Shown in pieces: positions 8,974 to 43,451 of a stretch of DNA of 64,000 bases. Every line of letters begins with the position of its first letter. Position 1 is the stretch's first letter. Both the position numbers and the translations under genes were made by a program. The DNA is from a virus, in the IMG/VR virus record IMGVR_UViG_3300038466_000014. One strand, given 5' to 3'. Under the pieces are notes generated by a model. The model saw nothing but the letters and a program-made list of their open reading frames with translations. It was not told where the DNA came from and did not search any database.

Positions 8974-9181
8974 ATATGTCTATTCCCAGGGCTGGGGGTT
9001 CTTTTTCATACAATTTACTATAAAAACTTAGAACTTTTTTAGCAAAATCTCTTGGGTGGCCTTGACCGGTCAGATCTCGTTCTCTTATTCCATCCAGAAG
9101 ATCAAACAACAAGAACTTTAGAAAATTATTTCTTTCTTCAATATTCATATCTTTATAAGCAGAATACAAGTCATTCTCCAT
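8960..9181 (-). CDS. hypothetical protein
   Basis: Translationally coupled between the sbcD-like and sbcC-like genes. Confidence 0.65.
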   Translation of the reverse strand: MENDLYSAYKDMNIEERNNFLKFLLFDLLDGIRERDLTGQGHPRDFAKKVLSFYSKLYEKEPPALGIDIYEKG

Positions 9182-10190
9182 TCGTCTGTTCCTCTTTGTT
9201 TAAAATGGACAAGGCATAGTTTATATATAGTGGTTTGTTAGCATCATCCATTTTTGTTATATCCGCCCATTTCGACAATTGTTCGTCTATAGTCATCCCG
9301 CAATTAATTCCTCTCATTTCATATTGTTCTATAGAGGTGTCGATTACAATAATATCATTTTTATATTGATCTGGAATTTTTAGTTTTTTCGACGAGGTGT
9401 TTTTGATATAAACATAATGACCTTCGTTTCTAAGAAGATCGGCCTCTTTTAAAACAGTGTCAATATCAGAATCGTCTGAAACTTCTATCTCAACATATTT
9501 TCTATATCCTGTGGTTAGTACAGAGTCTACAGAAAAAGTATTTGTATCCACTACTAAAAACCTTTTATCTTCATTCTTTTCATCTCTTCTTAACTGGATA
9601 ATAGATCCACAATAGTATACGTTACCTAAATTCTGTGGTTTGTGGTAATGGCCGAGAAGGACAAGTTTGAATTTACTCAATTCTTTTAATCCTACCGGAG
9701 ATGAAATGGATATACCGGATGATAGTTGAGCATCGTTTACACCGAAATGGCTAATCAATATATCGTGTGACGGTAGGGCATTAACCACATCGTATATCTC
9801 ATGTGAAAAAGGAACCATTATAATATTATCCAAAACAAAATTTTCCGTTGTTACACATCTAACATTATTCGTACCATTTAAAAGTTCTATGGCTGAATAT
9901 TTATCTACTTTTTGAGTTGAGTCGTGATTTCCGTGAATGAAATAAAAATTTATATTATTATATTTTTCGATTATCTTCTTAAGTAGAACAAAACCTATAG
10001 TATATACTACATTCTTTGTATCGTTTGTATCTCCGGCGATAATAATCGTATTTATATTATTGGATGTGGCATACTCGCACATCTGATTAAAACACATGAG
10101 AATATCATTTAATTTTCTGGGTAGATTATTGATATAATGTTTATCATCCCATGATTTTAAATGAAGATCTCCACTAACAATTACCCGCAT
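9171..10190 (-). CDS. SbcD/Mre11/gp47-like nuclease
   Basis: GDLH, AGD, HGNHD, SHFG and GHYH metallophosphoesterase motifs; next to SbcC. Confidence 0.92.
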   Translation of the reverse strand: MRVIVSGDLHLKSWDDKHYINNLPRKLNDILMCFNQMCEYATSNNINTIIIAGDTNDTKNVVYTIGFVLLKKIIEKYNNINFYFIHGNHDSTQKVDKYSAIELLNGTNNVRCVTTENFVLDNIIMVPFSHEIYDVVNALPSHDILISHFGVNDAQLSSGISISSPVGLKELSKFKLVLLGHYHKPQNLGNVYYCGSIIQLRRDEKNEDKRFLVVDTNTFSVDSVLTTGYRKYVEIEVSDDSDIDTVLKEADLLRNEGHYVYIKNTSSKKLKIPDQYKNDIIVIDTSIEQYEMRGINCGMTIDEQLSKWADITKMDDANKPLYINYALSILNKEEQTNGE

Positions 10191-14262: not shown

Positions 14263-15693
14263 TTATCCCTCAAACCTAAATTCTTTTACTTCCCATTTTT
14301 TCTCTTGATAAAACAATTTTCTCTTAACTGCCATTCGATCGAATATAGATACTTTATAACCAAGATCTTTCGAATATACCAGTGGTCCGTCTGTATCTAC
14401 TATATCTAAAACATAGGGACATTTTTTATCCGAAAGCTCTCTAAGTATTCTTCCTATAGCCTGTTCTATATTTTTTGTTGGTGTAGTCATAATCAGAGTA
14501 TCTAATGTTTTTCTGTTGTTTCCATCTCTACAAGCATTATATGTAGACAAGACTATTCTGCGGTTTTTAAATGCGTCATCTAATCCATTATAATCAATAA
14601 ATTCGGATATTTCTTCCTTAATAGATTTTTTCCCTTTTTGTTTCTTTTCTACTGAAGGGATAAAAAATCCTATTTCATCCTTTGGTATTTCAAGAAGCCG
14701 TAACATTTCTATAAATGGTTTTATACGTATACCCAATAATAAAATATTTCTGTCTTTATCGTACAATTGTTTTGTATAATGAGCTATTCTTTTTAAATAA
14801 AGTTCAGATTTGTATAATTGTTGATAATATTTACCGTAACTAAATTGTCCACCATACGATAAATATTTTTTATGTGCGGAATATACCCCGAATGGAAAAT
14901 AGATCATGTATACTACTGGAGCCATTAATTCCCCCACTTCTGGAAGAAAGTATCTTATTTCCCCAAGATGATAGTTTAGTATATCAGTAGTTCCATCATC
15001 CCTATACGGGGTCGCACTTAACCCAAAAACCCGTTTAATCGGAATGTGCAATGAACAGTTACTAAACTTCTTAGATCCTACGGTTGCGTGGGCTTCATCG
15101 AAAAATGCAATTCCGATGTTTGCAGAATCCACACATTCTTTAAATCCCGGAACCGTTTTTAAAAAGCTACTGAACCCCTGAACCGTAGAAATTATGATCG
15201 GTTTATCTAATTGTTTTTTATAATGCTTCCTGGTCAGAAAGGGGATGTCTTCATCTTTAAGATTGGTAAACGTTAAAATCTCTTCTTTCCATTGTCTCCG
15301 CAGCTTATCTTTGTGAACAAAAATGATAGTCTTTTTCTTTAGTTTGGATATAGTGGCAATTGCGACAACCGTTTTTCCAGATCCTGGTTCTAATTTCAAA
15401 ATACCTGAATTGGACATCGTTAAAAAATCAATTGCGTTTTGTTGCCTTTCATTCTTAGGAACAATATGCGATTCAATATCTATATCCGCTCCATCTTCAC
15501 ACTTATCTATAACCATATCTCCTATAGGATAATTTCTTGGAATAAGAACGTCTCCGTTAGGCAGATCCTCATAATATTGTATCTGTATCATAGCGCCAGT
15601 AAAGGTTTTAATATTTTTATCCAAATGGCTTTTAATAATTTCTATATTTTCGTAATCTTTAGGAATAATTATTCCTGATGTTCTGATTAACAT
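14263..15693 (-). CDS. SF2 helicase, UvsW-like
   Basis: PGSGKT, FFDEAH, GLSATPYR and QAIGRILR motifs. Confidence 0.92.
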   Translation of the reverse strand: MLIRTSGIIIPKDYENIEIIKSHLDKNIKTFTGAMIQIQYYEDLPNGDVLIPRNYPIGDMVIDKCEDGADIDIESHIVPKNERQQNAIDFLTMSNSGILKLEPGSGKTVVAIATISKLKKKTIIFVHKDKLRRQWKEEILTFTNLKDEDIPFLTRKHYKKQLDKPIIISTVQGFSSFLKTVPGFKECVDSANIGIAFFDEAHATVGSKKFSNCSLHIPIKRVFGLSATPYRDDGTTDILNYHLGEIRYFLPEVGELMAPVVYMIYFPFGVYSAHKKYLSYGGQFSYGKYYQQLYKSELYLKRIAHYTKQLYDKDRNILLLGIRIKPFIEMLRLLEIPKDEIGFFIPSVEKKQKGKKSIKEEISEFIDYNGLDDAFKNRRIVLSTYNACRDGNNRKTLDTLIMTTPTKNIEQAIGRILRELSDKKCPYVLDIVDTDGPLVYSKDLGYKVSIFDRMAVKRKLFYQEKKWEVKEFRFEG

Positions 15694-15698
15694 AATGA

Positions 15699-15902
15699 TT
15701 ATTCCTTGAAAGGGATACCTAATTTTTCCGCTATTTGTTTAAGTGAAAAGTATGCGTATTCTCCATCTCTTCCAATTCTAACTTCTCCTCCTCTTACATG
15801 ATGTGGCCGAAACTTCTCTATAACCCTTGAGAATTTGAACATTTTATAATGTTCCTTCTCACCTTTCGTTCCCTTTCGTCTCCGGCTACGGTTTTTGTTC
15901 AT
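15699..15902 (-). CDS. small basic hypothetical protein
   Basis: Coupled between the topoisomerase A and helicase genes. Confidence 0.6.
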   Translation of the reverse strand: MNKNRSRRRKGTKGEKEHYKMFKFSRVIEKFRPHHVRGGEVRIGRDGEYAYFSLKQIAEKLGIPFKE

Positions 15903-17340
15903 TAGTATTCTTTGTTATAAATTTAAAAATTGTTTGATAGTCCGTAATACATTTATTCGTCATGGACACATCCGATTCTACTATTTGTTCTAATCTGGAT
16001 ACCTCATTGATGATATCGTTGGTATCTGTCCCTATAGACAATAATTGCTTTATACTATATTTTGCGCAAATTGTTTCAATTCTTTTTGGATCTATATTTG
16101 TTTTTTTACTCAATATATCTACTTTTTCCGAGAATGATAACTCCAATGTTAACGTTGATATATGAGGAATAATTAATCTAATTACCGCTATCTCATCTAT
16201 TTTCTTTTTAAATTCGTCTATTTTTTTAATAATATTAACCTTTTGAGCCTCTTTAAATTTAGAATACGCATTCATAAGCATTGTGTCCACTGGAGTTATC
16301 TCAACATTACTACTCTCGTTTACAGCATATATGTTATACAATAAAACAGATTCCAGAGAAGAAATGATAGCATTTTTCATCTTTGTGAATATCTCGTCAG
16401 TATTTCTCTGTTTCGCTACGGAAAATACAACTACAGTTTCGTCTATTCCGTTTCCGGTCCTATCTGCATAACCTATTTCATTATTACTCAATAAATTATA
16501 ATCGTTATATTTGTCTATTCTGGATAATAAAGTTTCGAACGTAAACCTCGGAGACCATCCATTAACTATTATTGTCTTATTATCTTCATCTATTGTATAT
16601 CTACCTCTTATCTTTATTTCGCCGGTTCCTTTCGTCAAAATCTTTTCAAATTCCCCATCTATAACATTACATCCAAAAACCATTGGTTTGATAATATATC
16701 CTTTATCTTTTCCTTTCAAAAGACTCATAAGCCGTATAATAAGATCTTTATGGGTATAACACGGGATGACAGATTTTATTCCGAATGCCGGTTTCGATTT
16801 CTCAAATTTGGATATTAGACAAAAAGGAATCATAGTTGGTAAATATATTGGCTCCTCTTTCATATTGTTATCTCCAGAATACCACGGAACGTCATTGATA
16901 TACTCCATGGATATTCTTTCGATAAATTCATTAGCTTTAACTTTGGTATATCTCATAGCAGCACATCCGGATGGGTTAGTACCTATACCGCTCCCCCAAA
17001 GTCCTGATCCATCTACAAAATTGTTCATTACCAGAGTATTAACAGTATCTTCAGATAATTGATGCGGATGCCATTTTGCCATTGTATCTCCAATAATAGC
17101 CGCAGTTCTTATATATTCGTTTTTACAATTATAATGACACGAAAGAAGCAGTCTCCTCTGAACGGGAATGAGACCATCCAAAGCGCTCGGGATCATCTTG
17201 GAGGTAATAACATACATTCCATATCCTTTATACTGCGATACAGCAAGGTCGATCATATTTATATCGTCAATCGATCCGGGAATCAAAGATAAGTTGTTTC
17301 CGTTCGTCTGATTTTTTGAAGAGTTGGATAAGTTTTCCAT
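15886..17340 (-). CDS. Type IIA topoisomerase, GyrA/ParC-like subunit (no CTD)
   Basis: DGLIPVQRRLL, WHPH and AAMRYT (catalytic RY). Confidence 0.92.
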   Translation of the reverse strand: MENLSNSSKNQTNGNNLSLIPGSIDDINMIDLAVSQYKGYGMYVITSKMIPSALDGLIPVQRRLLLSCHYNCKNEYIRTAAIIGDTMAKWHPHQLSEDTVNTLVMNNFVDGSGLWGSGIGTNPSGCAAMRYTKVKANEFIERISMEYINDVPWYSGDNNMKEEPIYLPTMIPFCLISKFEKSKPAFGIKSVIPCYTHKDLIIRLMSLLKGKDKGYIIKPMVFGCNVIDGEFEKILTKGTGEIKIRGRYTIDEDNKTIIVNGWSPRFTFETLLSRIDKYNDYNLLSNNEIGYADRTGNGIDETVVVFSVAKQRNTDEIFTKMKNAIISSLESVLLYNIYAVNESSNVEITPVDTMLMNAYSKFKEAQKVNIIKKIDEFKKKIDEIAVIRLIIPHISTLTLELSFSEKVDILSKKTNIDPKRIETICAKYSIKQLLSIGTDTNDIINEVSRLEQIVESDVSMTNKCITDYQTIFKFITKNTNEQKP

Positions 17341-19075
17341 AGTCTTCTGACCAACCTATTCTTTGAAGGATTCGTGACTTCTCGTCCAGAATGAAAGTTT
17401 TTAAATCTTTTGGATCGAACTCGCCTAATCCTTTAAACCTCAGAATTTTATATTTTGATTTAACCTTAAGAATTTCTTCTTCGTTCCATAGCGGTATAAA
17501 TTTTCCAGTTTTGTCTTTGTATCCGAAAAGAGGCGTTTTACATACATATATTTTTTTATGTTTAATGAGTTCTGGTAAAACAGTTACAAAAAACACTATT
17601 AGCAGCGATGAGATTAACCATCCTGCCGGATCCGCGTCTGTGGCTATAATGATTTTATCGTATCTAAGTTTGGATATATTGAACTCACTGCCAATACCTG
17701 TACCAATCGCGGCAATAAGATCTTTCACTTCTGTATTATTTAATAAATCCTGTCTCTTAGTCGCCGCCGCATTTGGAACAACTCCTCTTAACGGAAGTGC
17801 CGCGTGTTTTTTAGAATCTCTTTCATTTATCAGTCCGTTTATAGCCGAGTCACCTTCTCCTATAATGAGTTCTCCCCCCTCGCATTCACAATCCACAAGT
17901 TTTGTAAATTTGTTAAATAGGCGTTTCGAACTTCTTTTACCTGTGATCTTTTTCGAATCTTTTCCGGATTTATAAGCCTCTATATCAGTACATATTTTAT
18001 ATAACATTTCTTTATCATTTGCAAAATATTTTTTTATTTGTATTTCAACAACATTGAAAACAGAAAGGTCTGTTTTATTTCCCAAAGTAGTTTTGACCTG
18101 GGCTTTAAATGATGTATCTGTCAGCCTAAGATCCATGTAGCATCTAAGATGTGGAATTACGTCTTTACCTTCAAATGTGAATCCGAGTTTTTTAGAAGCA
18201 GATTCAAAATAATCTTTTATAATATTTATAAATTTTGTAATATGCGAACCCGATGATACAGAAATCATATTGACTATGGTTAAAAATTTAGGAGTGGGGG
18301 AAGACTCGTAGTCCCAAAAGAATTTTACCAATCCATAATCCGATTCGTAATTTGCGGAAATTCCTATACACCGATCTATTTCTTTTGAATCGTTTAAATT
18401 ATCCGCTAAAAAAGAATTTATGTTTCCACTAATCTCTTCGACACGGTTATCTATGATCAAATGTATATTCAAAGTAGGAAAATGCATTTTGAGTATAGTC
18501 AATCTGTTTTTAATGGAATCTACATTTACTTTTACATCATCGAATATAGACGGATCTGGAACTATAGTGATTCTGGTTGAGAATTTGTTATTTTGGTTTT
18601 TCTCATAGGCACGGCCTTCAAAATGTCCGTTTACAAATTTATATACGGCGGTCTTGGTTTTTTTCTGAATTTCTATCGATAAAAAAGTTGATAAAAAATT
18701 AACAACTGTTAGACCAACACCATGTTTTCCGGCAGCTATCTTATATGGACTATCATCAGATTTTTTATTAAATTTCCCAGATGTGTGCAATTCAGTACAT
18801 ACCAACACCGGAGAATCTTTTTCCGGCGGAAGTTTCATATTGTAAGGAAATCCCCTGGCGTTATCCGATACTGAATAAACACCATCTATAGTATTTAAGT
18901 TTATACACAGTTCTGTAGCGTATCCAGCCAATACTTCATCTATAGCATTATCCAATAATTCATCTATTAACTGTGTAGGATTTTCTATAGAACCTATATA
19001 CATCTCCGGATTTTTTCGTACTGTCTCGTACTCTGACAGTTTTATAATCTTATCGGTAGTATATTCGTTTGACAT
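17267..19075 (-). CDS. Type IIA topoisomerase, GyrB/ParE-like subunit
   Basis: ELLDNAIDE, DNARG, GKHGVG, EGDSA, PLRG, TDAD and RFKGLGE motifs. Confidence 0.95.
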   Translation of the reverse strand: MSNEYTTDKIIKLSEYETVRKNPEMYIGSIENPTQLIDELLDNAIDEVLAGYATELCINLNTIDGVYSVSDNARGFPYNMKLPPEKDSPVLVCTELHTSGKFNKKSDDSPYKIAAGKHGVGLTVVNFLSTFLSIEIQKKTKTAVYKFVNGHFEGRAYEKNQNNKFSTRITIVPDPSIFDDVKVNVDSIKNRLTILKMHFPTLNIHLIIDNRVEEISGNINSFLADNLNDSKEIDRCIGISANYESDYGLVKFFWDYESSPTPKFLTIVNMISVSSGSHITKFINIIKDYFESASKKLGFTFEGKDVIPHLRCYMDLRLTDTSFKAQVKTTLGNKTDLSVFNVVEIQIKKYFANDKEMLYKICTDIEAYKSGKDSKKITGKRSSKRLFNKFTKLVDCECEGGELIIGEGDSAINGLINERDSKKHAALPLRGVVPNAAATKRQDLLNNTEVKDLIAAIGTGIGSEFNISKLRYDKIIIATDADPAGWLISSLLIVFFVTVLPELIKHKKIYVCKTPLFGYKDKTGKFIPLWNEEEILKVKSKYKILRFKGLGEFDPKDLKTFILDEKSRILQRIGWSEDYGKLIQLFKKSDERKQLIFDSRID

Positions 19076-22073: not shown

Positions 22074-23024
22074 TTACAATAACATATTTAGTTTCGATAT
22101 CATTTCGTCTTGAGTGACTTTAACCAAACGTTTTGTTATTTCCAACCCAACCATAATCAAAATTACTTTTTGCAGAGTAGTATTACATCCTGCCGCATTA
22201 CATTTTTGAATAATATTATTAAATTCCAGATCTTGTGAATTGGTAACAGAAATATCTTTCCATAGTTTTTGATTTTTATTAAGGATATTTAAACCTTGTT
22301 TTATCATAGGAGCGGCATGTAATTTATTCATATCGGCAAAATCTAAAATCCTTTCACACCATTGAATTATATCGGCATTTTTAACGATACATTTTGTACC
22401 CATTTCGACTCGGTTGAACCATCCTATAAATCGTTCCTGTGTCTTATTGTTAGTCATGATCTCTATATATCGAGACCCTTGTTGTATATTGAGAAACAAC
22501 CATAAATACTTATCTCCTATATTTTTGTTTATAAAATTAATAACATTAATGCTTTTTGTACCGAGGTTTCCATCAATGGTCAGTGGATAATTTGAATGTT
22601 TAGATTTCATATTATCCATCAGCCGGTTACAAGAAGCCTGTGCCCATCTACATACAGATGTTGGGTGAAAATTAACTCCGGAATCAAATATTTCATTTGC
22701 CACTATCTGTGATTCAATCGAATCACCATTAAACACATCCCAATAATTCTTTTTATACCTGTCTTGTTTTAAGGATTCCAGTTTTGCGTTGTGGTTGGTA
22801 AGATTTTTCGGAAATCCTGTTTTTTTCTTACTTTCATCAATTATTTTCCATCCGGGCCAGTCTGGGTTAGCCTTTCTGGATATTCCTCCATATGTTTCTC
22901 CGCCGTTATCACCCGGATTGCATGACCAGTCATTTTTTCCCTCGTGACCCATTGTTCTATCATATGCGGTCTTGAAGATAGCCATTAGACATTCCTTTTT
23001 GAAATTAATGGTTTTAAAAAACAA
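22074..23024 (-). CDS. Glycoside hydrolase family 108 endolysin
   Basis: GHEG...DNGGETYGGIS catalytic motif, FDSGVN, and a PG-binding-like segment ending FIGWFNR. Confidence 0.88.
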   Translation of the reverse strand: MFFKTINFKKECLMAIFKTAYDRTMGHEGKNDWSCNPGDNGGETYGGISRKANPDWPGWKIIDESKKKTGFPKNLTNHNAKLESLKQDRYKKNYWDVFNGDSIESQIVANEIFDSGVNFHPTSVCRWAQASCNRLMDNMKSKHSNYPLTIDGNLGTKSINVINFINKNIGDKYLWLFLNIQQGSRYIEIMTNNKTQERFIGWFNRVEMGTKCIVKNADIIQWCERILDFADMNKLHAAPMIKQGLNILNKNQKLWKDISVTNSQDLEFNNIIQKCNAAGCNTTLQKVILIMVGLEITKRLVKVTQDEMISKLNMLL

Positions 23025-23839: not shown

Positions 23840-25138
23840 TTAAACATGTTTTGAATTGAGAACAGCCTTGATACACCGTTCTTTTACTTCTGCTATAGTA
23901 TATTTGTTTTCTCTGGATTCTTCACGTATAGCCTGTTTTACGTCGCCTGGAAGATCGTATGCTATTTTGTTGATCATAAATTCTATACCCTTTTCATCGG
24001 AAGAATGAAATTCGAATACGGAATCAATCCTTCCGGGTCTGGTTACGTGACCGTTTCCACAAAGAGCAGGATCGATAGAATCTGGATTGTTTGTCGTGAT
24101 AAACAAATAATAAGGACTATTATTATTCGCCCCATCGAGACAATTTAAAATACAATCAAATGTCAATGGTATTTTATCGTTTACAGGGTTAGATCCTGAA
24201 AATACCCTGTCAAAATCTTCGAATAATATAATATGGGGAATATCCGTAAACACCTCTGTAAACGCGGTTTTAAATTGGGTATTGTTTAATTTAGACAAAT
24301 CAAATACTATAATTGGAATCTTGTATTTTATAGACAGATAAGTAATGGAATGTGTTTTCCCTGTACCTGGACTTCCATATAGGAGTGAACCGCGTTTCCA
24401 GTTTAATCCATGTGATATATACCAATCCTTATTGTTCAGCCAGAAACTAAAATCATGTTCAACTTCCGCAATTGTATCAGTAACATATATATCTTTTGCG
24501 ATATTTATTTGATCGTATATTTTCATACCTTCGAAAATATCTGTTTTTTTATCACAAAATATAAACTCATCTGAACTACCTAAAGATATAGTCTGTACAT
24601 CATAATCATCATCACCGGATGGCGCAACATATTTTATATATGGAGAAGTCTGTGTAATATGTTCTGATAAAATATGATCATTAATCTCGTTTAACCATCT
24701 GGCAAAAATTTTTTTAACATTTATAGTATATCGGATATAGTATATTTCCAAATCCGCGCTATCATATTCTTCTGATGTGGTGATAATAATCGGAACCTTA
24801 TCTATAAAAAACAGAAGGACCGCTTTTTCTTCTGTTGATAAAGCATAGTATAATTGATTGTATTGATAAAATCCGGATATTATGTTATATGTGGGATTCT
24901 TTAAATCGATATATGTATATCTTTCTTTTAACAGTTTTATAAGCTTATAAATCACAATATTTCTACCAAAAACCGAAAATACGGCGTTCTTTACGAAAAA
25001 TCCAAACATTAATGATAAATATTTTTTATTTTTTACATTTCTGATCGTATCAAAAAGTTCATCGCCAATATATGTAGACGGTACATCATTTCGACTGGAA
25101 GAGGTTACAGGTATTTGTTTCCTGTGGGTTGGCATCAT
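23840..25138 (-). CDS. BCS1-like AAA+ ATPase
   Basis: WKRGSLLYGSPGTGKT, ILFEDFD, LNCLDG and RPGRID motifs. Confidence 0.88.
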   Translation of the reverse strand: MMPTHRKQIPVTSSSRNDVPSTYIGDELFDTIRNVKNKKYLSLMFGFFVKNAVFSVFGRNIVIYKLIKLLKERYTYIDLKNPTYNIISGFYQYNQLYYALSTEEKAVLLFFIDKVPIIITTSEEYDSADLEIYYIRYTINVKKIFARWLNEINDHILSEHITQTSPYIKYVAPSGDDDYDVQTISLGSSDEFIFCDKKTDIFEGMKIYDQINIAKDIYVTDTIAEVEHDFSFWLNNKDWYISHGLNWKRGSLLYGSPGTGKTHSITYLSIKYKIPIIVFDLSKLNNTQFKTAFTEVFTDIPHIILFEDFDRVFSGSNPVNDKIPLTFDCILNCLDGANNNSPYYLFITTNNPDSIDPALCGNGHVTRPGRIDSVFEFHSSDEKGIEFMINKIAYDLPGDVKQAIREESRENKYTIAEVKERCIKAVLNSKHV

Positions 25139-25472: not shown

Positions 25473-26567
25473 TTATTCCTTCGTAAGATATTGTTTTATT
25501 ATTTGCTGCCTTTTGGGGTTTAGTGCCCTCGGACCATTGTAACGGTCTTTTCCATACAGTTTCTGAATGATATAATGACGCAGTGGATTATCCTTCAACA
25601 CCACATTATAAATATTATTTTTATCATCTAAATTATAGTTTTTCTCCACATAATCAGCATTTGTGATTATATCGGATACAAATTTACTATATGCGTCTAT
25701 TATAGGTTGAAATAAATGTATTTTTTCCGGAAAAGTTGCAAGATACTCATCTTGCTCACAGTCCCATACCAAATTGATTATCTTTTTAAATGATAAATTA
25801 TTTCCTACCATTCGATGAAGAATCAAATATTCCGGATTTTTTACTTTGATTCTTAGCTGGGTTTTAGTATTCCATAAGACATATCCCTCGTCTCTTGGAG
25901 CAAGATCAACAAACGACTCTATCAGATTTTCGATAGTGTCAAAATTGTAAATCTTTGGCATTTCTATACCTATGGATTTGGCCGCTTCAAACATCCTATC
26001 TAAAGAATAATAATCGCCCGTATACGTGTGACGTACTCCAAGAAGTACGATTCTTGGGCGATCATAAATAGTCACATTCTGATTTTCTTTAAACGCGCCT
26101 TCCATAATGTATGTGTATGATTTATTCATATTTTTCATCTTATCGTTTATATCACCAAAGTATTTCTCAAATAGTTCTTTCCAAGTAAGCCGATCTCCAT
26201 CGAGATTTTGTTCCGCTTCGATCTGCCTTCTGGTCGAAACATACCAACTATTCTGATTGTTATCGAAATATACATTAAACATTGTACCATCTACTTTTTC
26301 CAATATCACGCTATTATCTAAATCTACAGAATCAACATCGTTTTCACCGAGGTTAAAAAATCGATCGAACGTTCTGCATACAGGATTATGATTTAGATCA
26401 AGAATTAACCCCCTGCACTCTACTACAATAGGATGCGTTTTAAACGGCCAACTATTAATCTGGTCATAATCCAGTCCTATTTTATGATTATAAAAATTAA
26501 TATGAATACCCAAATCTCTTAATGATTGCATGGATGGATCTTGTTCGAAAAGTTTTTGAACTTCCAT
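25473..26567 (-). CDS. RNA ligase, T4 Rnl1-like
   Basis: ECRGLIL, TFDRFFNLGE, EKVDGT (motif I), EGYV and KVKNPEY. Confidence 0.88.
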   Translation of the reverse strand: MEVQKLFEQDPSMQSLRDLGIHINFYNHKIGLDYDQINSWPFKTHPIVVECRGLILDLNHNPVCRTFDRFFNLGENDVDSVDLDNSVILEKVDGTMFNVYFDNNQNSWYVSTRRQIEAEQNLDGDRLTWKELFEKYFGDINDKMKNMNKSYTYIMEGAFKENQNVTIYDRPRIVLLGVRHTYTGDYYSLDRMFEAAKSIGIEMPKIYNFDTIENLIESFVDLAPRDEGYVLWNTKTQLRIKVKNPEYLILHRMVGNNLSFKKIINLVWDCEQDEYLATFPEKIHLFQPIIDAYSKFVSDIITNADYVEKNYNLDDKNNIYNVVLKDNPLRHYIIQKLYGKDRYNGPRALNPKRQQIIKQYLTKE

Positions 26568-34185: not shown

Positions 34186-35193
34186 TTACAGATTATACAT
34201 ACTTGATAGTATTGATGCTGCATATCTGCCTTGTTTGAATATCATTCGATTTTGATGTTGTTCGGTAATCCTCTCCAACTCATCCGCATAATCACTTCTA
34301 AAATCTTTTTCCGCATCCTCTACAATCAACGGAATAAAATATTCAAAATCTTTTTTTGATTTTAATTGTCTTATTTCTTTAGATAGAACATTCTTAATTC
34401 TGTTTTCGTTTATATATCCTGAAAATATATTATAGAGACGGACAGCCCCCTCTCCAACTTCTTTTTTCTCTGACGGAGTGCTTCCTTCGGAGAACTCTAC
34501 GTTTTTAATCTTAAACTTAAATTCGTGAGTACGGTCATTCATCATTCTAATGACACATCCTTCTATCGGTAAATTTTTCTTTGGATTGAGTGGAGAAAGT
34601 TTCGACGGGATTCTAATATCTGTTTTAACAATATTATCAAGACCTTTTTCTATATTTATAACTGGAACATATACAGACATCAAACCTAATTCAATTAGCA
34701 AATCTATTTCCTGATTAACAGACATTCTTTGATCATCCTGAATTATATAAAACAATCTAAAATTCTTTTTGAATTTATTATCTTCTATATATGAAATTTC
34801 GTTCATTACCCCAGATCCAAAATATTCACCATACCAAATCATATTTTTGTTTGTAATTTTTGAATATTCGTCCATTGTTTTCAACATATCAGAACATAGG
34901 ATATAATCACCTTTGACATCAAATATAATTTTCCCTTTTGTGAAATATGACTGATAATCATAGAATTTTTCACTCTGTGCCGAATCAATATATCCAAGAA
35001 ATGCGTTTCTTCTTGCAAACACGGGTTTATCGGAATTAGAGGTATAAATAGAAAAATTGGTTCCGTGAATCTTTTCTGTAGCAACAAATTCTGTTTCTGA
35101 ATCGTATACTTCAGAATTTATATAATTATCAAAAAATCGTTTATTGTGATATCCTTCTATGATACTAAACTTTCGATGGATACGTTTTTCCAT
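34186..35193 (-). CDS. RNA ligase, T4 Rnl2-like
   Basis: ATEKIHGTNFS, YGEYFG, EGCVIR, FKIKNVEFSE and YINENRIKNVLSK motifs. Confidence 0.92.
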   Translation of the reverse strand: MEKRIHRKFSIIEGYHNKRFFDNYINSEVYDSETEFVATEKIHGTNFSIYTSNSDKPVFARRNAFLGYIDSAQSEKFYDYQSYFTKGKIIFDVKGDYILCSDMLKTMDEYSKITNKNMIWYGEYFGSGVMNEISYIEDNKFKKNFRLFYIIQDDQRMSVNQEIDLLIELGLMSVYVPVINIEKGLDNIVKTDIRIPSKLSPLNPKKNLPIEGCVIRMMNDRTHEFKFKIKNVEFSEGSTPSEKKEVGEGAVRLYNIFSGYINENRIKNVLSKEIRQLKSKKDFEYFIPLIVEDAEKDFRSDYADELERITEQHQNRMIFKQGRYAASILSSMYNL

Positions 35194-35647: not shown

Positions 35648-35884
35648 TTATGCCGGAACAAAGATCCATGTATTAGGCTGTTGCGGTTCTGGTATTTTAC
35701 CGTCTTTTCGAGAACAGCAAAACCACGGTAAATCTTCGACCTTTCTTCCAGATTCCGCATATTCCGAGAAGGCGTAGAGAAATGCCATATGGAAGGGTTT
35801 ATCCTTCCACTTTTCGATAATCTCAGGATCGTGCAGCATTGTTTTAAAATGATTATTTTCCATGAGTTCTAACTCCTCCACCAC
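35648..35884 (-). CDS. hypothetical protein
   Basis: Overlaps the end of the PurA-like gene. Confidence 0.6.
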   Translation of the reverse strand: MVEELELMENNHFKTMLHDPEIIEKWKDKPFHMAFLYAFSEYAESGRKVEDLPWFCCSRKDGKIPEPQQPNTWIFVPA

Positions 35885-37302
35885 GAATTATTTGTTATAT
35901 TTTTGTCTTTATATGTCGACCCATTTGAAATCAAAACAACCGGAAGCTCTAAATATTTTTCAACGAAACTTACAAATTTGGTTCTCCAATCCTTGCCTGT
36001 AAATTCTTTATATATGGGCTTCGCGTATTGTAAAATAGCCGTTCTGTTTGGGATATGCTCGGAAAAACATTCTATCTTATCGTTATCTGGTTGATAACTA
36101 TCTGGATATATCTCTGTCTTATTGGTTGTTTCATTAAAATGTTCGGAAACAGCATCCCGTCCTACGCGATAAACAACATCATTCAAATTATATTTAACAC
36201 ATACCTTAATACCATCGAGTTTTTGAAGGGTATCATAATGAGTCATAACAATACCTCTTATACCTCCCATATGGGCCGCATAAGAGGTAGCCACTAAATC
36301 CGGCCATCCAGTCCGAAAATCTCCCTGCCATTCGTTCATTATATTGTGTTTTTCATCCATTACTGATTTTAAATCCGGATCTTCTGTTACAAACGGACCA
36401 TTTCCGTGTCTTGTCATCAAAGTGCGCATAACACCCAATACTTTTATATCATCCCAATCGCAATTACCACACGAAGGATACTGATACTCCAAATTATCTG
36501 TTTTTGTAATATACGGAGCAAATCCATAAGACGGATTTAACAATATACCCTGTCCGCTTTCATAAATGGTAATATTGTTATTGTCGATTAAATCAGATAC
36601 ATGAACTTCATTATGAGTATCTATGTTATGTTTTTCTATTATGGTATAGTACGAATCCAAAAGATTCTCAATATATTGTTTCGTACTCATTGAACTCAGC
36701 TTTTGAAAAAATCCATATTGGTGAAGCACTTCTCTGTTCTTATCAGTCACTAATTTTTTAAATTCATCGTTTGTATATTCCATAAGGTCTGCTATAAAAT
36801 CGTGAATTTTAGGTAAATTCAGACTACTTAACCTAATTGAGAGATCATCCTTCACAACGGATTGTCTGTGCGTTTCTCCAACACCGCAACCGACTGTTCC
36901 CAATCTATTATCCAATCTTGCGGTTTCTCTTGCCATGCCGAGAATTACATGATATGGAGTAATAAGTCTGGTTTTATGATCTACGAACAATCTATTATCA
37001 ATGGTGTGTATTTTTTCTTTGATGATGTCTATCTCCCGATCCAGGGTTAAAAGATCCAGATAAGTCTGACACATAACATATCCGGTAGCTTCATCATGAG
37101 ACAGTAAATTGGATGTTAACTGACTAAAACAATGATGTCTTCCATCCGGTCTAACTACGTTGTGGGCACATTGGGATCCGCCATGATATCGGATAACCGC
37201 GCTTTTTCCATATACGCTACCCAAATAGTCAATCGTCGTTCCTTTTCCTTCATCTCCATATCCAAGACCCAGGACTACAATTATATTATTTTGTCCCGCC
37301 AT
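35869..37302 (-). CDS. Divergent adenylosuccinate synthetase (PurA)-like protein
   Basis: GLGYGDEGKG, RYHGGSQCAHNV, GTVGCGVGET, YESGQGILL and TRHGNGPFVTE motifs. Confidence 0.88.
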   Translation of the reverse strand: MAGQNNIIVVLGLGYGDEGKGTTIDYLGSVYGKSAVIRYHGGSQCAHNVVRPDGRHHCFSQLTSNLLSHDEATGYVMCQTYLDLLTLDREIDIIKEKIHTIDNRLFVDHKTRLITPYHVILGMARETARLDNRLGTVGCGVGETHRQSVVKDDLSIRLSSLNLPKIHDFIADLMEYTNDEFKKLVTDKNREVLHQYGFFQKLSSMSTKQYIENLLDSYYTIIEKHNIDTHNEVHVSDLIDNNNITIYESGQGILLNPSYGFAPYITKTDNLEYQYPSCGNCDWDDIKVLGVMRTLMTRHGNGPFVTEDPDLKSVMDEKHNIMNEWQGDFRTGWPDLVATSYAAHMGGIRGIVMTHYDTLQKLDGIKVCVKYNLNDVVYRVGRDAVSEHFNETTNKTEIYPDSYQPDNDKIECFSEHIPNRTAILQYAKPIYKEFTGKDWRTKFVSFVEKYLELPVVLISNGSTYKDKNITNNSWWRS

Positions 37303-38213
37303 CAGGTTATCCCCATTTTATTAAGAATAGTCACCGCATGCGAAAAATGTCGGGTAGAGATGCCGTCACTTAACATAAAACATTTATATCCCATACGTTT
37401 CATGAGTTCTATATCAGACAAATCGGAAACAGAGGGGGTCTCTCCGGAATCAAGACTCGTCAACAACCTTGAGGCTACCATAGCATCAGGATCTGTCATG
37501 ACTATAAGTTGAAGATACGACAGAAAGGCATGATATTTATCGAGTGAATTAATAAATAGATCATCCCGTGCAGCCATTAAACAACAATTGGAGTAACGTA
37601 ATAAATATTCACTAATGGTACTGACAAAATCCAACCCCAATTTTGATTCTATTTTCAGTATTAAATTGGATTCGGGCGACAATTGTTTGACTTTTAAAAC
37701 ATCTTCCCATTTTTCAACAAATGATAACATAAAATTCTTTATATTCAGCTTATTACATGCATTAATATATTCTATATCAGAATCAGTCAAATATCCTTCT
37801 ATCTGTAAATTGTTTCCTATAATATTGACCGCCTGCCCTTCTCCTAAAGCAAATGGCGGGTCCGGAGTAACAAAGATACGATTACCATCTACTATATTTG
37901 TAATTGTACAGGAAGGCGCATCTCCCCTAAAATAAATTTTAGCTGGTAAATCAACTTTAATATTATGGTTTAAAACAATGTCTCCATATGTCGGTACTGC
38001 CCATTTAGTAATCCTTAATTGTCTACCCTTTAAATCAATATATAATAATTTGTGGTTTTTTACGCATAAATCATTAATAATCTCAATCGTAGAGGATGGA
38101 GAATACGGGGATTTACATGCCGTATTATATCTAACGACCCCGATTCTATCATCTTGTAGCATGTTTAGTAAAACATCTTTATGATGTATAGGCGGAAGTG
38201 TTGTTAGAATCAT
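37302..38213 (-). CDS. Divergent pyruvate-kinase-like protein (barrel and B domain only)
   Basis: VRYN, IDLKGRQLRI, LKIES, MAARDDL and FMLSD correspond to PK motifs. Confidence 0.75.
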   Translation of the reverse strand: MILTTLPPIHHKDVLLNMLQDDRIGVVRYNTACKSPYSPSSTIEIINDLCVKNHKLLYIDLKGRQLRITKWAVPTYGDIVLNHNIKVDLPAKIYFRGDAPSCTITNIVDGNRIFVTPDPPFALGEGQAVNIIGNNLQIEGYLTDSDIEYINACNKLNIKNFMLSFVEKWEDVLKVKQLSPESNLILKIESKLGLDFVSTISEYLLRYSNCCLMAARDDLFINSLDKYHAFLSYLQLIVMTDPDAMVASRLLTSLDSGETPSVSDLSDIELMKRMGYKCFMLSDGISTRHFSHAVTILNKMGIT

Positions 38214-39175
38214 AACTTCCGCATGGAGCTATTACGATTTATTTTGCTGGATTTTTCGGGTAGTGTTCCCATGTCTACAATCGTGGTCAAAGCCGTAGTA
38301 TAATTCTGGAGCGATGATTTAACACTGCTAATCCGTTCATCGTTCTGCCCTCTAACAACAAGATCTTGTGTGTACTTGTCGAGATCTCTCGTTTTTGTCG
38401 TCATCGCAATAATTCCAAGCATAACATCGATAATCGATTTCTCCTGTTTGAGGCGGATAATCCTCTCTTCCGGAATATATTTTCTCCATTCATCAATAAT
38501 CCAAGGAACCCAATCACCGCCGCAATACTTATTCAGAAGGACAAAGACATTACCATGAAATTTCTTATCAAGCTGTTTAAACACTTTTGAGGATAGAATA
38601 TCGACATTAGTATCTTCATCAAACACTTTTTTGATATTTCTCCGGAATATATCTGCATATGGGGCTTCATCGGCGATAAAGAAAAAGAACGGCACTATGG
38701 CTTTATCGATGTTGCATTTATTATTGTAGTAATACGCAGCCAACTCATAAGTTTCATGCAGTTGTCCACCACCACCGCCTTCCAGATAGATTTTCTTAAT
38801 CCAATTATCGAGTTCAATTCCATAAGCAAAATCACCGATTTGCAGTGGGGCCGAATCACAATATGCGTCACCACACGCGGAAAACGAAATTTCGAATTCG
38901 TTTGCCGGAAGATATCCTTGTTGCTCGATTTGTCCGTGCATCATCGGAGCTTTGTCATAACAAACCTTGGCGAGATTTGTATTCGAGCCAGTAACATCCA
39001 ACATTACAACAATTGGATACTTAACGTTCGACGAAACTGTTTTTTTAGGTGTCATGTATACTGACATATCATCAGCATTCATTTCCTGAGTCGCCGTGTT
39101 CGATGTCATCCCAGAACCAAAAGCAGCCGATGACGTGCTTCCATATACAGGTCTTGCGTATGTACTACCACCCAT
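38210..39175 (-). CDS. vWA-domain protein
   Basis: MLDVTGS MIDAS, GDAYCDSAPLQIGDF, EGGGGGQLHETYELA and FFIADE. Confidence 0.8.
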   Translation of the reverse strand: MGGSTYARPVYGSTSSAAFGSGMTSNTATQEMNADDMSVYMTPKKTVSSNVKYPIVVMLDVTGSNTNLAKVCYDKAPMMHGQIEQQGYLPANEFEISFSACGDAYCDSAPLQIGDFAYGIELDNWIKKIYLEGGGGGQLHETYELAAYYYNNKCNIDKAIVPFFFFIADEAPYADIFRRNIKKVFDEDTNVDILSSKVFKQLDKKFHGNVFVLLNKYCGGDWVPWIIDEWRKYIPEERIIRLKQEKSIIDVMLGIIAMTTKTRDLDKYTQDLVVRGQNDERISSVKSSLQNYTTALTTIVDMGTLPEKSSKINRNSSMRKL

Positions 39176-39189
39176 GGTGTCCCTCGGTG

Positions 39190-39604
39190 TTATTTTAGTT
39201 TGTCAAAATGATGTGTAAACCGCTCGAACCCAAAATGTTTTGTTCTCATCTCATCTGTCTGAATAAAAACATTATGAATTAAAAAATTACAAAGTACATG
39301 TCTATGGCAAAAATCTCCAGATTTTTCATAACATAACAATATACTACCATTTTGAATAGATTTTACGATGTTTGCCGCCGATAATGGTAAACATTTTATA
39401 TACTCAATAGAATACTCTTCTTCGGATATAATCTTGTTTTTATATCTGTAGGACAATTCTTTTTTTTGGGGCAAGATCTATTCGCCGGTGAACTCCCTGA
39501 AAATCAGGAGGTATAGCACCACTTATACAAATCAGCTTTGATCTGAAATCTGCGTTAGATATATGGGGACGGACCATTGAATAGTATGAGGTGTATATAA
39601 ACAT
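39190..39604 (-). pseudogene. DUF488-like gene with +1 frameshift in an A8 run
   Basis: MFIYTSYY...ICIS...DLAPKK continues into ELSYRYK...LLCYEKSGDFCHRH only if the A8 run at 39460-39467 is read as A7. Confidence 0.7.
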
Positions 39605-41342: not shown

Positions 41343-41732
41343 TTATAAAGTCTCCAGATATTTTTTTACTTCGTTATTATCGATCTGCCCGGCAAATTTG
41401 ATGCCCACATCTTTCATCATCATCATTTTATTTTTATAACTGGATATATCCAAAGAATTAATAAATTCAATCACTTCTGAGAAGTCGACTTTTTTAGGCA
41501 ATAGATCGTCAATCATCTTAGTTAAATCAGACTCTTCCATGTTCATATATTTCAACCGCTCAATCTCGTTTTTACGCAATACTTTCAATATCTTAATTTC
41601 CATATCGGTCGTAGTGTTTTTATCGGGACTTCTTTCAATTTCTCCAATCATAACTTTCAGAACATTTCTTTTTTCGTAATCATGATAATATTCTTTCAGC
41701 ATATTTTTAAGTTTTGTTTTTACTTCCCCCAA
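41343..41732 (-). CDS. GatB/YqeY-domain protein
   Basis: LKVMIGEIER...KNE...DLLPKKVD...GQIDNNEVKKYL pattern. Confidence 0.7.
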   Translation of the reverse strand: MGEVKTKLKNMLKEYYHDYEKRNVLKVMIGEIERSPDKNTTTDMEIKILKVLRKNEIERLKYMNMEESDLTKMIDDLLPKKVDFSEVIEFINSLDISSYKNKMMMMKDVGIKFAGQIDNNEVKKYLETL

Positions 41733-41798
41733 AATGGATTTTCCCTCTATATTTACGATGTTTAATGTGTGACTATTTAATCACTTGCTTTTAATAAA

Positions 41799-43451
41799 TC
41801 ATTCAATAGAAATAGTTTTACTGTCTTTGCTTGGTGTTCTTAGATACTTATCCAACATTTCATAATCTGTGAACTCATATTGATTCGGAGAAAAAGACGA
41901 CGCCCCGATTTTATTTGATACTAAATCAATATATTTGGAATATATTCCTTCATCTGAATAATATGACTGAGCATCTACCCCAAACTTATCTAATAATTCC
42001 TTCCCAAGTAAATTAACCATAGCTGTATCTACACTAATCCCTTTGCTCTTATTAAGCTCTAAAAAATATTCCTTATCCAATCTATATCTATCACAGTGTT
42101 TACCACGCCCACAATTCTTAAATCCAAGATATAATATGTTTATATACATGGAAGAGCATACTCCGATTATATACGCCAAATCATTTATATCAAACAATTC
42201 GGGTATAATATGTATTTTTATATCATTATGTTTTTTATTAATTTTATTGTCTCTATAAGCATCGCAGAAATTTTTAAATTCTTCTATCGTCGATATCGAT
42301 ATACCAATACCGTCAATACATTTGAAATTATCCATATCATTGAAAATACGCTGATAATTTTTTGTGCTTAGGCCAAGAGACATACCTTTATCTTTTATGT
42401 ATCTGATTATACTTAAGATATTTGGATGTTCAAGCGGATCTCCGCCTCCAGGCGCAATCTCCAACACACCTTTGTTATATAAATAATCAACCATTTTGAA
42501 AATATGTTCAGTATCGGCATGTTTTCCGTCGGAATGGGAGCTTTGATAACAAAAATCGCAATTATAATCACACCGATCTGTTATTTTCAAATCAATCAAC
42601 TCCGGATAATAATTTTCCGGAATCATATATGAGAATGTTTTGTCGCGGTATCTTTTTGGGGGTGTATTAATATAGTTAGAGTTTTCGGAAAAATCGAATC
42701 GTAGCTTGGTTCCTTCATTTTTATGAAACAGTACATACATATTATCTTTTTTAACCGATACCCAATCGGAGTCCGACAATATCTTTCGCAATCTGTCATA
42801 CGGAAATTGGGTATTAAATCTCGCACTATTTATACTTTCATCGCTTCCACCAGTAATAATATAATTATCATTATTTAAAACAGTTTTTATAAAATCACGT
42901 GCAAAATCATAATCTATTTCCTCTCCATTTTCATCTACAGGATATTTTTTCGGAAAAATTATAACTGATTGGTGATCTACATACGGATAAAACTCATATT
43001 CTATCGTCTCATCGATATTCATTTTCTCAATAAACTCATCAATAACTTCCGGAACAAAATCCAAACCATTTTCTCTTATTTTTGTGATTACAGAATACAT
43101 ATATTTCCGAATCGCTTTAGAATGTGTCATACTATCTTTAGTATAGTACATAAACCCAATCATATCGCAGAATAATTGTGTAAATAAATATCTATACTTC
43201 TCTTTCTTAGACACACATACGAAATGATCGTGTCCGTAGGCAAACTTGTAATTAACAACATCAACAATTTCTATCATATTATTGTCGACCGTTTTTACAC
43301 ATTCCGGATTAAATTGAAACATATTCTCCAGGTCGTGTTGATCTCCATTAATATCACTTTTGGTATATACCCAGATAAACGAGTGCAAAGAGGAAGAGTT
43401 TGTGGCAAACCCTTCTCTGATTGAAAGGAGTCTAAACATTCGCGTTTCCAT
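41799..43451 (-). CDS. Radical SAM protein with N-terminal TNSSS domain
   Basis: REGFATNSSSLHS; PELIDLKITDRCDYNCDFCY (CxxxCxxC); GGGDP. Confidence 0.88.
   Translation of the reverse strand: METRMFRLLSIREGFATNSSSLHSFIWVYTKSDINGDQHDLENMFQFNPECVKTVDNNMIEIVDVVNYKFAYGHDHFVCVSKKEKYRYLFTQLFCDMIGFMYYTKDSMTHSKAIRKYMYSVITKIRENGLDFVPEVIDEFIEKMNIDETIEYEFYPYVDHQSVIIFPKKYPVDENGEEIDYDFARDFIKTVLNNDNYIITGGSDESINSARFNTQFPYDRLRKILSDSDWVSVKKDNMYVLFHKNEGTKLRFDFSENSNYINTPPKRYRDKTFSYMIPENYYPELIDLKITDRCDYNCDFCYQSSHSDGKHADTEHIFKMVDYLYNKGVLEIAPGGGDPLEHPNILSIIRYIKDKGMSLGLSTKNYQRIFNDMDNFKCIDGIGISISTIEEFKNFCDAYRDNKINKKHNDIKIHIIPELFDINDLAYIIGVCSSMYINILYLGFKNCGRGKHCDRYRLDKEYFLELNKSKGISVDTAMVNLLGKELLDKFGVDAQSYYSDEGIYSKYIDLVSNKIGASSFSPNQYEFTDYEMLDKYLRTPSKDSKTISIE

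Follow-up and report, generated by a model that had tools for sequence, protein, structure and literature searches.

A vWA protein and a re-tooled PurA-family ligase form the core of a cassette carried by large phages and bacteria

A three-gene operon in a large phage

The DNA analysed here, hereafter the window, is a 64,000-nucleotide stretch of the IMG/VR virus record IMGVR_UViG_3300038466_000014. It is a piece of a large, tRNA-rich, uncultured phage, with about 35% G+C, 12 tRNA genes and nearly all of its genes on the minus strand; the protein database places the window genes on a contig of 180,230 bp. At positions 35869-39175 lie three consecutive genes, which code for a protein with a von Willebrand factor A (vWA) domain (P0001), a short pyruvate-kinase-like (PK-like) enzyme (P0002) and a ligase of the PurA superfamily (P0003) (Table 1). 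An earlier note, made from the sequence alone, had read these as three coupled genes, and the open reading frames (ORFs) indeed lie exactly there, with overlaps at both junctions: genes 1 and 2 share ATGA, and genes 2 and 3 meet in TGATG. The vWA gene is preceded by a GAGGGA ribosome-binding site. From these junctions, the three genes are translationally coupled. They form one functional unit, and the recurrence of their order in dozens of unrelated contigs puts the arrangement far beyond chance.

No match for the region was found in a DNA search of 50,697 phage records. A promoter-like site upstream of the vWA gene agrees at 10 of 12 positions, and such sites are no commoner in the region than in its shuffles; its position alone is suggestive of a promoter role. 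At the other end, the PurA-like gene shares its last 16 nt with a 78-aa ORF that has no PHROG or Pfam match and might be the fourth gene of the coupled set. In several other loci, too, the PurA-like gene is followed by small ORFs.

Table 1. Predicted features of the window at and around the three-gene operon
Feature	Position	Strand	Description
vWA/MIDAS protein P0001	38210-39175	minus	321 aa, phrog_2971
Short pyruvate-kinase-like enzyme P0002	37302-38213	minus	303 aa, PF00224
PurA-superfamily ligase P0003	35869-37302	minus	477 aa, PF00709
Promoter-like site	39192-39219	minus	TTTACA, 16 nt spacer, TAAAAT; 17 nt upstream of the vWA start codon
94-aa ORF	39190-39474	minus	directly upstream of the cassette; hits phrog_2450
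78-aa ORF	35648-35884	minus	
AAA ATPase	23840-25138	minus	432 aa, PF00004
Rnl1-type and Rnl2-type RNA ligases	25473-26567 and 34186-35193	minus	
Radical SAM protein, then phrog_1460 protein	41343-43451	minus	550 aa (PF04055; phrog_16999) and 129 aa (labelled tRNA amidotransferase)
Replication and lysis genes	6595-10190, 14263-19075, 22074-23024	minus	

Distribution of the cassette

Among annotated genes, those most closely related to P0003 are called "PurA-like" and belong to about 200 cluster C mycobacteriophages (32% identity). In phage Tonenili, a homologue of P0001 (30% identity, 4e-32) lies directly upstream of the PurA-like gene, and the gene before it codes for a kinase-fold protein with a J-domain-like HPD segment. 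Three sets of loci were compared: 80 viral loci from IMG/VR, found with a profile of the PurA-like clade; 80 loci from species-representative genomes; and 80 metagenome loci, retrieved with a profile of the PK-like protein.

A P0001 homologue is located directly upstream, on the same strand, in 75 of the 80 IMG/VR loci. In four of the other five loci the available upstream DNA is shorter than 1 kb, and the remaining one, L075, has a canonical PurA. A gene for the kinase-fold protein occurs in 51 of these 80 loci; its HPD segment is kept and the Asp of its HRD motif is mostly replaced. Since most members of the family are without this catalytic Asp, it is a family of pseudokinases. In the species-representative genomes, the same partners accompany clade-type genes of Actinomadura, Streptosporangium, Micromonospora, Streptomyces, Nocardia, Chloroflexota, Planctomycetota and others, while none of the canonical-PurA loci of that set has vWA or pseudokinase partners. 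The vWA protein is thus a near-constant partner of the PurA-like clade, and the genes in the window are one copy of a widespread phage and bacterial cassette, the core of which consists of the vWA protein and a re-tooled PurA-family ligase. The earlier note had proposed a survey of neighbourhoods, and this survey recovers the same cassette from phage, metagenome and bacterial loci. A full-text literature search found no paper describing the clade or the cassette, and neither is mentioned in the papers checked on PurZ and on phage NAD+ reconstitution (NARP).

In the window, the vWA and PurA-like genes are co-directional with only the PK-like gene between them, as in L002, L017 and most metagenome loci of the PK type. 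Several metagenome loci are arranged otherwise: L199, L237 and L238 have a pair of vWA paralogues that flank the PK-like gene, and L188, L205, L210, L224 and similar loci have the order PK-like, PurA-like, PRK-like kinase, pseudokinase, vWA. In the IMG/VR locus L026, a 142-aa pseudokinase fragment adjoins the PurA-like gene on its upstream side, and the 990 bases of upstream DNA show no vWA gene; it may be a rare arrangement without vWA or an effect of the assembly edge. Pfam searches on the flanks of the bacterial loci L112 and L090 gave nothing useful.

A hidden Markov model of the pseudokinase family finds no pseudokinase gene in the window. The last 22 residues of the 94-aa ORF next to the cassette are 41% identical to the C-terminus of the pseudokinase at L002:3007-4098, the gene in front of vWA in the closest relative (BLASTP, pairwise E 6e-4), and this ORF might possibly be a remnant of a lost pseudokinase gene. 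The ORF looks chimeric; besides this C-terminal stretch it carries, in its middle part, a Cys-His-Arg motif, GSILLCYEKSGDFCHRH, which we take to be reminiscent of DUF488 proteins. Genes for tRNA-Ser, tRNA-Asn and tRNA-Gln come directly after the ORF, as if a tRNA block had replaced the pseudokinase gene. This copy of the cassette would have lost the usual pseudokinase and retained the PK-like gene.

The PurA-like protein

P0003 matches PF00709 at 3.4e-59 over model positions 1-411. Its NCBIfam scores are far below the cut-offs both for purA (171.5 against 402 with PRK01117, 140.9 against 395.55 with TIGR00184) and for PurZ (50.8 bits against 300 with NF038379). For a residue map, E. coli PurA served as the reference to which 135 partner-linked and 19 canonical sequences were aligned. 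The roles given below to residues of the E. coli enzyme (catalytic, GTP, IMP and aspartate ligands) are those that we understand its structures to support. Thus D13, K16, H41 and Q224 presumably carry out phosphoryl transfer, with D13 and H41 as the acid-base pair, and D333 presumably specifies guanine. The segment T300-T301-G-R303-x-R305 we take to be the aspartate loop, and N38, T129, R143' and T239 the ligands of the IMP 5'-phosphate.

The catalytic residues are retained. P0003 has the P-loop GDEGKG at residues 16-21, and its D17, K20, H47 and Q251 align to D13, K16, H41 and Q224 of PurA; the equivalent of H41 lies in the segment GGSQCAHN. Across the clade, D13, K16 and H41 are unchanged in every aligned row (3 PK-type rows are gapped there), and Q224 is found in 133, T239 in 132, R306 in 129 and D333 in 134 of the 135 sequences. 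G12 and S414/G416 are also kept.

The aspartate loop, by contrast, is replaced in all 135 clade members and intact in 19 of 19 canonical PurA sequences. T300 has become W, F or Y, T301 has become Q or N, R303 is deleted, and R305 has been exchanged for F or another hydrophobic residue. In P0003, residues 319-333 read HNIMNEWQGDFRTGW where TTGRxRR would be expected; R303 is deleted, W325-Q326-G327 and F329 (at the R305 position) stand in the loop, and the replacement corresponds to an invariant W-Q-G-x-F-R. Essentially every clade member also has Q at N38, C or V at T129 and an invariant His at V273, and has lost R143, a position that varies across the clade. Among the IMP 5'-phosphate ligands P0003 keeps only T239, with Q for N38, V for T129 (C in most of the clade) and K for R143. 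The Asp of GDEGKG in place of the Ser of PurZ, the rewritten TTGRxRR loop and the change of GHT to AHN had all been pointed out in the earlier note, and the alignment bears them out. Taken together, P0003 keeps the catalytic and GTP-binding residues of PurA but has a new, conserved, non-basic pocket for the nucleophile.

In an approximate phylogeny (FastTree), all partner-linked sequences fall into one clade, which is separated from canonical PurA by a branch length of 1.27 with a support of 100. P0003 groups with the sequences of L002 and L236, a pairing that the program flags as long branches meeting. From its loop, its scores and its separate clade, P0003 is neither a housekeeping PurA nor a PurZ, in line with the view that it is not a routine PurA. 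It is scarcely credible that the cassette holds ordinary purine genes, i.e. a divergent functional PurA (or a PurZ serving a diaminopurine genome) together with an ordinary pyruvate kinase. The Pfam families PF00709 and PF00224 and the PurZ-type name given by PHROGs would fit such genes, but 135 of 135 clade members lack R303 and have other residues at T300, T301 and R305, the scores are far under the purA and PurZ cut-offs, the clade is separate and D13 is Asp. In addition, the PK-like protein is without a C domain and reaches 55 bits against a cut-off of 432.

Four larger genomes have, beside the clade paralogue, a canonical PurA that scores 540-612 bits. In a 0.7-Mb Saccharibacteria metagenome-assembled genome (MAG), the clade gene is the sole PF00709 member and there is no PurB. 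Direct amination might be considered here: AMP, dAMP or a 2-amino analogue would be made from IMP or another 6-oxopurine nucleotide and ammonia, without PurB, and the PK-like enzyme would push the adenylate pool to ATP. Such a route is consistent with the Saccharibacteria MAG, with the retention of the catalytic residues and GTP site, and with the replacement of the aspartate carboxylate binders by a closed hydrophobic pocket. We nevertheless judge it improbable, as it leaves the vWA partner, the pseudokinase and the invariant H/N/W/Q/F pocket unexplained, two IMP 5'-phosphate ligands are lost, and the cassette is an addition in genomes where the PurA/PurB route is complete.

The vWA protein

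P0001 has no Pfam match up to E = 1 and matches phrog_2971, a family without assigned function, at 1.3e-31. Its conservation was assessed in 50 relatives, on which an AlphaFold2 model was also built (pLDDT 85.9; residues 1-3 and 18-29 are modelled with low confidence). The top Foldseek matches listed in the PDB (about 40) are all vWA-domain proteins, with probability 1.0, and include von Willebrand factor A domains, integrin I and beta-I domains and Sec23/24. Residues D60, T62, S64 and D169, which make up the metal-ion-dependent adhesion site (MIDAS), are invariant in the 50 relatives, as are M1, G2, D103 and E141. P0001 is therefore confirmed as the vWA protein that had been recognised without support from Pfam, and the model predicts a vWA alpha/beta fold with a D-x-S/T-x-S...D MIDAS site.

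The protein consists of an N-terminal tail of about 45 residues that begins with MGG, the vWA core and a helical C-terminal part. The tail is predicted to be flexible, with low model confidence, and its start is strongly conserved as Met-Gly followed by an aromatic-Ser...Tyr motif. Among 131 non-redundant vWA partners from the three collections, 117 have the MG...aromatic start, and about 6 of the other 14 have a GTG or TTG start codon before the same Gly. The partners in L106, L180, L203 and L214 begin with M-R-x-K-G or similar, so that the Gly is not at a free N-terminus.

A conserved, flexible tail on an almost inseparable partner raises the possibility of another substrate, the vWA protein itself. 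Here the ligase would join a purine nucleotide, via C6, to an amine of the vWA N-terminal tail, with its motif start-Gly-x-x-x-Trp/Tyr-Ser-x-x-x-Tyr, and the product would be a nucleotide-tagged protein. The vWA and PurA-like genes are almost never apart, the invariant M1 and G2 and the start motif mark the tail, and the arginines for an acidic substrate have given way to neutral or aromatic residues, all of which would agree with tagging. The conserved Gly of the four partners just named is, however, preceded by 3-4 residues, which argues against a free Gly alpha-amine as the universal nucleophile, and the conservation of the tail would be explained just as well if it were a docking peptide. 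Longer fusions of the PurA-like protein, among them vWA-PurA-like ones, were searched for and not found, a negative that carries little weight. On balance we hold tagging of the vWA protein to be unlikely.

The pyruvate-kinase-like protein

P0002 matches the pyruvate kinase barrel PF00224 at 1.4e-10, and its best NCBIfam pyruvate kinase score is 55.4 bits against a cut-off of 432. The AlphaFold2 model (pLDDT 94.6) has a TIM-barrel A domain and, at residues 66-132, a six-strand beta insert as the B domain; this lid, which follows the third barrel strand, is shorter than in E. coli PykF. The top Foldseek matches listed are all pyruvate kinases, among them PKM2 and PykF, with TM scores up to 0.78. 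The protein ends near PykF residue 335 of 470, where the C domain (allosteric and tetramerisation) would begin. As the earlier note had described, there is no C domain and the motifs are altered, with ARDDL and MLSDG present.

Aligned to the RLNFSHG and DTKGPEIR motifs of PykF, P0002 keeps R28, N30, D60, K62 and R67, and aligned to SKIEN, ARGDLG and ATQ it keeps K187, E189, R216, D218 and S248. We take the residues of RLNFSHG, DTKGPEIR, SKIEN and ARGDLG to bind phosphoenolpyruvate (PEP), Mg2+ and the transferred phosphate. In 41 relatives aligned to E. coli PykF, the catalytic residues R28, N30, D60, K62, R67, K187, E189, R216 and D218 are invariant or at least 90% conserved, and S248 too is invariant or almost so in the family. 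Part of the K+ site is altered (T to L, S to A or G) and the SGET segment is changed.

The protein database holds at least 879 relatives of P0002. Within IMG/VR, the PK-like gene is found only in the two relatives of the window. Among the 80 metagenome loci retrieved with the PK-like query, 70 also have the clade PurA-like gene, usually directly downstream, and the usual order in these PK-type loci is pseudokinase, vWA, PK-like, PurA-like. The PK-like gene also occurs in two of the species-representative genomes, namely MAGs of Myxococcales and Saccharibacteria. The family is almost confined to this cassette, of which the PK-like gene is a lineage-specific but recurrent member. The PK-linked PurA-like sequences are basal and paraphyletic in the approximate FastTree phylogeny, so the PK-like gene may be an old member that many lineages have lost.

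Neighbouring genes and NAD metabolism

Two further genes recur upstream of PK-type cassettes. One codes for a P-loop kinase of the PRK/uridine kinase family (19 loci by clustering, 23 by tblastn), the other for a fusion of a CN_hydrolase domain, an NAD synthase and a cytidylyltransferase-like domain (14 loci by clustering, 18 by tblastn), which looks like a NadE-NMNAT fusion. Where a PK-type metagenome locus has 3 kb or more of upstream DNA (31 loci), one or both of these genes are there in 18, and the PRK-like kinase keeps its place next to the pseudokinase in loci with a permuted gene order. These NAD-linked neighbours occur in metagenome loci resembling the candidate phyla radiation (CPR) only; with the same queries, none was found in the 80 viral loci or in 47 partner-linked genome loci. 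Two of four jumbo-phage records have a gene of the nucleotidyltransferase family about 9-25 kb from the cassette. A Pol-beta-type nucleotidyltransferase and an AAA ATPase also recur by PK-type cassettes, and the other neighbours are ordinary housekeeping genes.

The fusion gene and the kinase could indicate that the cassette makes or rebuilds an NAD-type dinucleotide. Nicotinamide would be joined by the ligase to an ADP-ribose-like acceptor that the ligase has phosphorylated, while the PK-like enzyme supplies nucleoside triphosphate (NTP); in another form, a hypoxanthine dinucleotide would be converted to NAD. The new pocket is rich in aromatic and amide side chains (W, F, Q, N, H) and would suit nicotinamide, a neutral aromatic N-nucleophile. 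Yet the NAD genes were found in the CPR-like metagenome loci only, and not in the viral and genome loci or among the 20 window ORFs that were scanned, the D13 and Q224 of PurA are suited to a purine lactam, and the NARP papers checked do not mention the protein families of the cassette. A role of this kind seems to us quite unlikely.

The company of a vWA protein, a J-domain pseudokinase and, in some loci, an AAA ATPase is typical of regulatory and assembly machines. This would be expected if the PurA-like protein were no longer an enzyme but a GTP-binding switch or scaffold that works with the vWA protein and an Hsp70-recruiting pseudokinase in a regulatory or conflict system, similar to predicted vWA-kinase modules. 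The kinase domain does resemble kinases of defence systems in PADLOC, but no PADLOC model matches the vWA, PK-like or PurA-like protein. The invariant D13/H41, Q224 and the newly invariant pocket argue for catalysis, and a metabolic role is indicated by the link to a PK-like protein whose catalytic residues appear intact and, within CPR, by that to enzymes of nucleotide and NAD metabolism. A pure switch or scaffold is therefore very unlikely.

A proposed mechanism

With the aspartate site gone and the catalytic machinery kept, a nucleophile other than aspartate is the natural inference. We propose that a GTP-driven ligase joins a neutral N nucleophile to a nucleotide, with the PK-like enzyme supplying NTP and the vWA protein as an obligate partner, and would give this proposal roughly an even chance of being right. 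The PurA-like enzyme would bind GTP, as its P-loop, D333 and S414/G416 suggest, and would transfer the gamma-phosphate to an oxo group of a nucleotide-type substrate by means of D13, K16, H41 and Q224. A neutral, non-acidic N nucleophile, held by the invariant His/Asn...Trp-Gln-Gly-x-Phe pocket that stands in place of the aspartate loop, would then displace the phosphate. Using PEP, the PK-like enzyme would make NTP from nucleoside diphosphate (NDP), most simply recharging the GDP released by the ligase, or alternatively lifting the product to the triphosphate level. The vWA protein would be an obligate, stoichiometric partner, with the task of presenting a substrate or of controlling the ligase.

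During infection, the target of the phage cassette would be the nucleotide or NAD-related pool of the cell. Routine AMP synthesis is not the expected role, because four genomes also have a canonical PurA and the Saccharibacteria MAG with the clade gene has no PurB. The earlier note had proposed a pathway that ligates a non-aspartate amine to a nucleotide and phosphorylates the product, to give perhaps a modified nucleotide or a signalling or anti-defence molecule. The first part follows naturally from the altered site; for the second, the PK-like enzyme could equally recharge GDP to GTP.

Several points weigh against this proposal. The changes at the K+ site and in SGET mean that PEP:NDP transfer by P0002 is not assured, and as most cassettes work without a PK-like gene, its role would be auxiliary. 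With T129 and R143 lost, the acceptor may not be a simple nucleoside monophosphate bound in the manner of IMP. Among the 20 window ORFs scanned, no NAD or nucleotide-pool gene adjoins the cassette, and its neighbours in the window are tRNA and RNA-repair genes. The substrate, nucleophile and product are all inferred from sequence, and the proposal does not explain the need for a vWA protein and a chaperone-recruiting pseudokinase.

Comparison with known systems

The closest known enzyme is PurA itself (EC 6.3.4.4; E. coli, PDB 1ADE/1KJX/1CG1). P0003 has the same fold and length class, covers the full Pfam model and retains GDEGKG, D13, K16, H41, Q224, T239, R306, D333 and S414/G416, so GTP binding and phosphoryl transfer to an oxo group are probably alike. 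It differs from PurA by T300W, T301Q, the deletion of R303, R305F, N38Q, T129C/V, the loss of R143 and V273H. The P0003 clade is also long-branched, is partnered with a vWA protein and coexists with canonical PurA in larger genomes.

PurZ, from the 2-aminoadenine (Z-genome) pathway of phages, is likewise a phage-borne PurA-superfamily paralogue with an altered choice of substrate, and PHROGs puts both in phrog_1211. PurZ still uses aspartate and needs PurB. At the D13 position it is reported to have Ser (10.1101/2025.10.22.683976), whereas P0003 has Asp there, has lost the aspartate site and scores 51 bits against the PurZ cut-off of 300. DatZ and MazZ were not among the 20 neighbouring ORFs, which were scanned generally and not with a search directed at these two proteins.

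P0002 shares with pyruvate kinases (PykF, human PKM2/PKLR) the predicted A barrel with its beta B insert and the catalytic motif residues. In contrast to these, it has 303 aa rather than 470, has no C domain, has a partly altered K+ site and a changed SGET segment, and belongs to a family found nearly only in the cassette.

The combination of a MIDAS vWA gene with a eukaryote-like kinase-fold gene is reminiscent of the TerY-P triad, which we take to consist of the vWA protein TerY, a Ser/Thr kinase and a PP2C phosphatase, as predicted by comparative genomics. The cassette differs in having no phosphatase, in a kinase without the catalytic Asp and with a J-domain-like HPD, and in the PurA-like protein as a constant third partner.

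The NARP pathways (NARP1 with Adps and Namat, NARP2, NARP3) are similar in that phage nucleotide enzymes combine an activated phosphate ester with an N nucleophile, and in that the cassette is co-operonic with NAD synthetase and NMNAT-like genes in CPR-like genomes. The protein families are unrelated, however, and there are no NAD genes by the cassette in the scanned window ORFs or the 80 viral loci.

Other genes of the window

The two RNA ligases flank an island of tRNA, Ro60 and Y-RNA genes that ends at the cassette. This tRNA and RNA-repair setting was considered as a part of the system and rejected: homologues of Rnl1, Rnl2 and Ro60 are beside the cassette in none of the other loci. Genes for tRNA lie within 6 kb of the cassette in only 21 of 81 viral loci.

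Beyond this island, about 11 kb downstream of the PurA-like gene, is the AAA ATPase, of the classical type, which is 30% identical (1e-40) to the AAA gene that the closest relative has next to its pseudokinase, directly upstream (L002:1693-3003, also L165). An unrelated AAA protein of 660 aa recurs beside PK-type cassettes in metagenome loci.

The radical SAM protein and the phrog_1460 protein, the genes of which lie directly upstream of a tRNA-like RNA and tRNA genes, may be an RNA-modification pair. The remaining segments listed in Table 1 contain ordinary large-phage replication and lysis genes, for SbcC/Rad50-like and SbcD/Mre11-like proteins, a ResIII/SNF2-type helicase, both type II topoisomerase subunits and a GH108 endolysin with a peptidoglycan-binding domain.

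Significance

PurZ is the precedent for how slight an alteration of a phage PurA paralogue is enough to rewrite the chemistry of DNA. The PurA-derived clade described here is larger and more widespread, has had its whole nucleophile pocket exchanged and has acquired fixed protein partners. Its carriers include about 200 cluster C mycobacteriophages, which are genetically tractable, as well as hundreds of uncultured large phages, CPR bacteria and actinomycetes. If the vWA protein were indeed tagged, a re-purposed enzyme of purine biosynthesis, powered by a dedicated PEP-driven kinase, would be carrying out a novel type of protein modification, common to jumbo phages, CPR bacteria and actinomycetes. 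More generally, the identity of the product would add a nucleotide-metabolic or protein-modifying reaction to the biology of phages and their hosts, and might explain part of the NAD and purine economy of ultrasmall bacteria.

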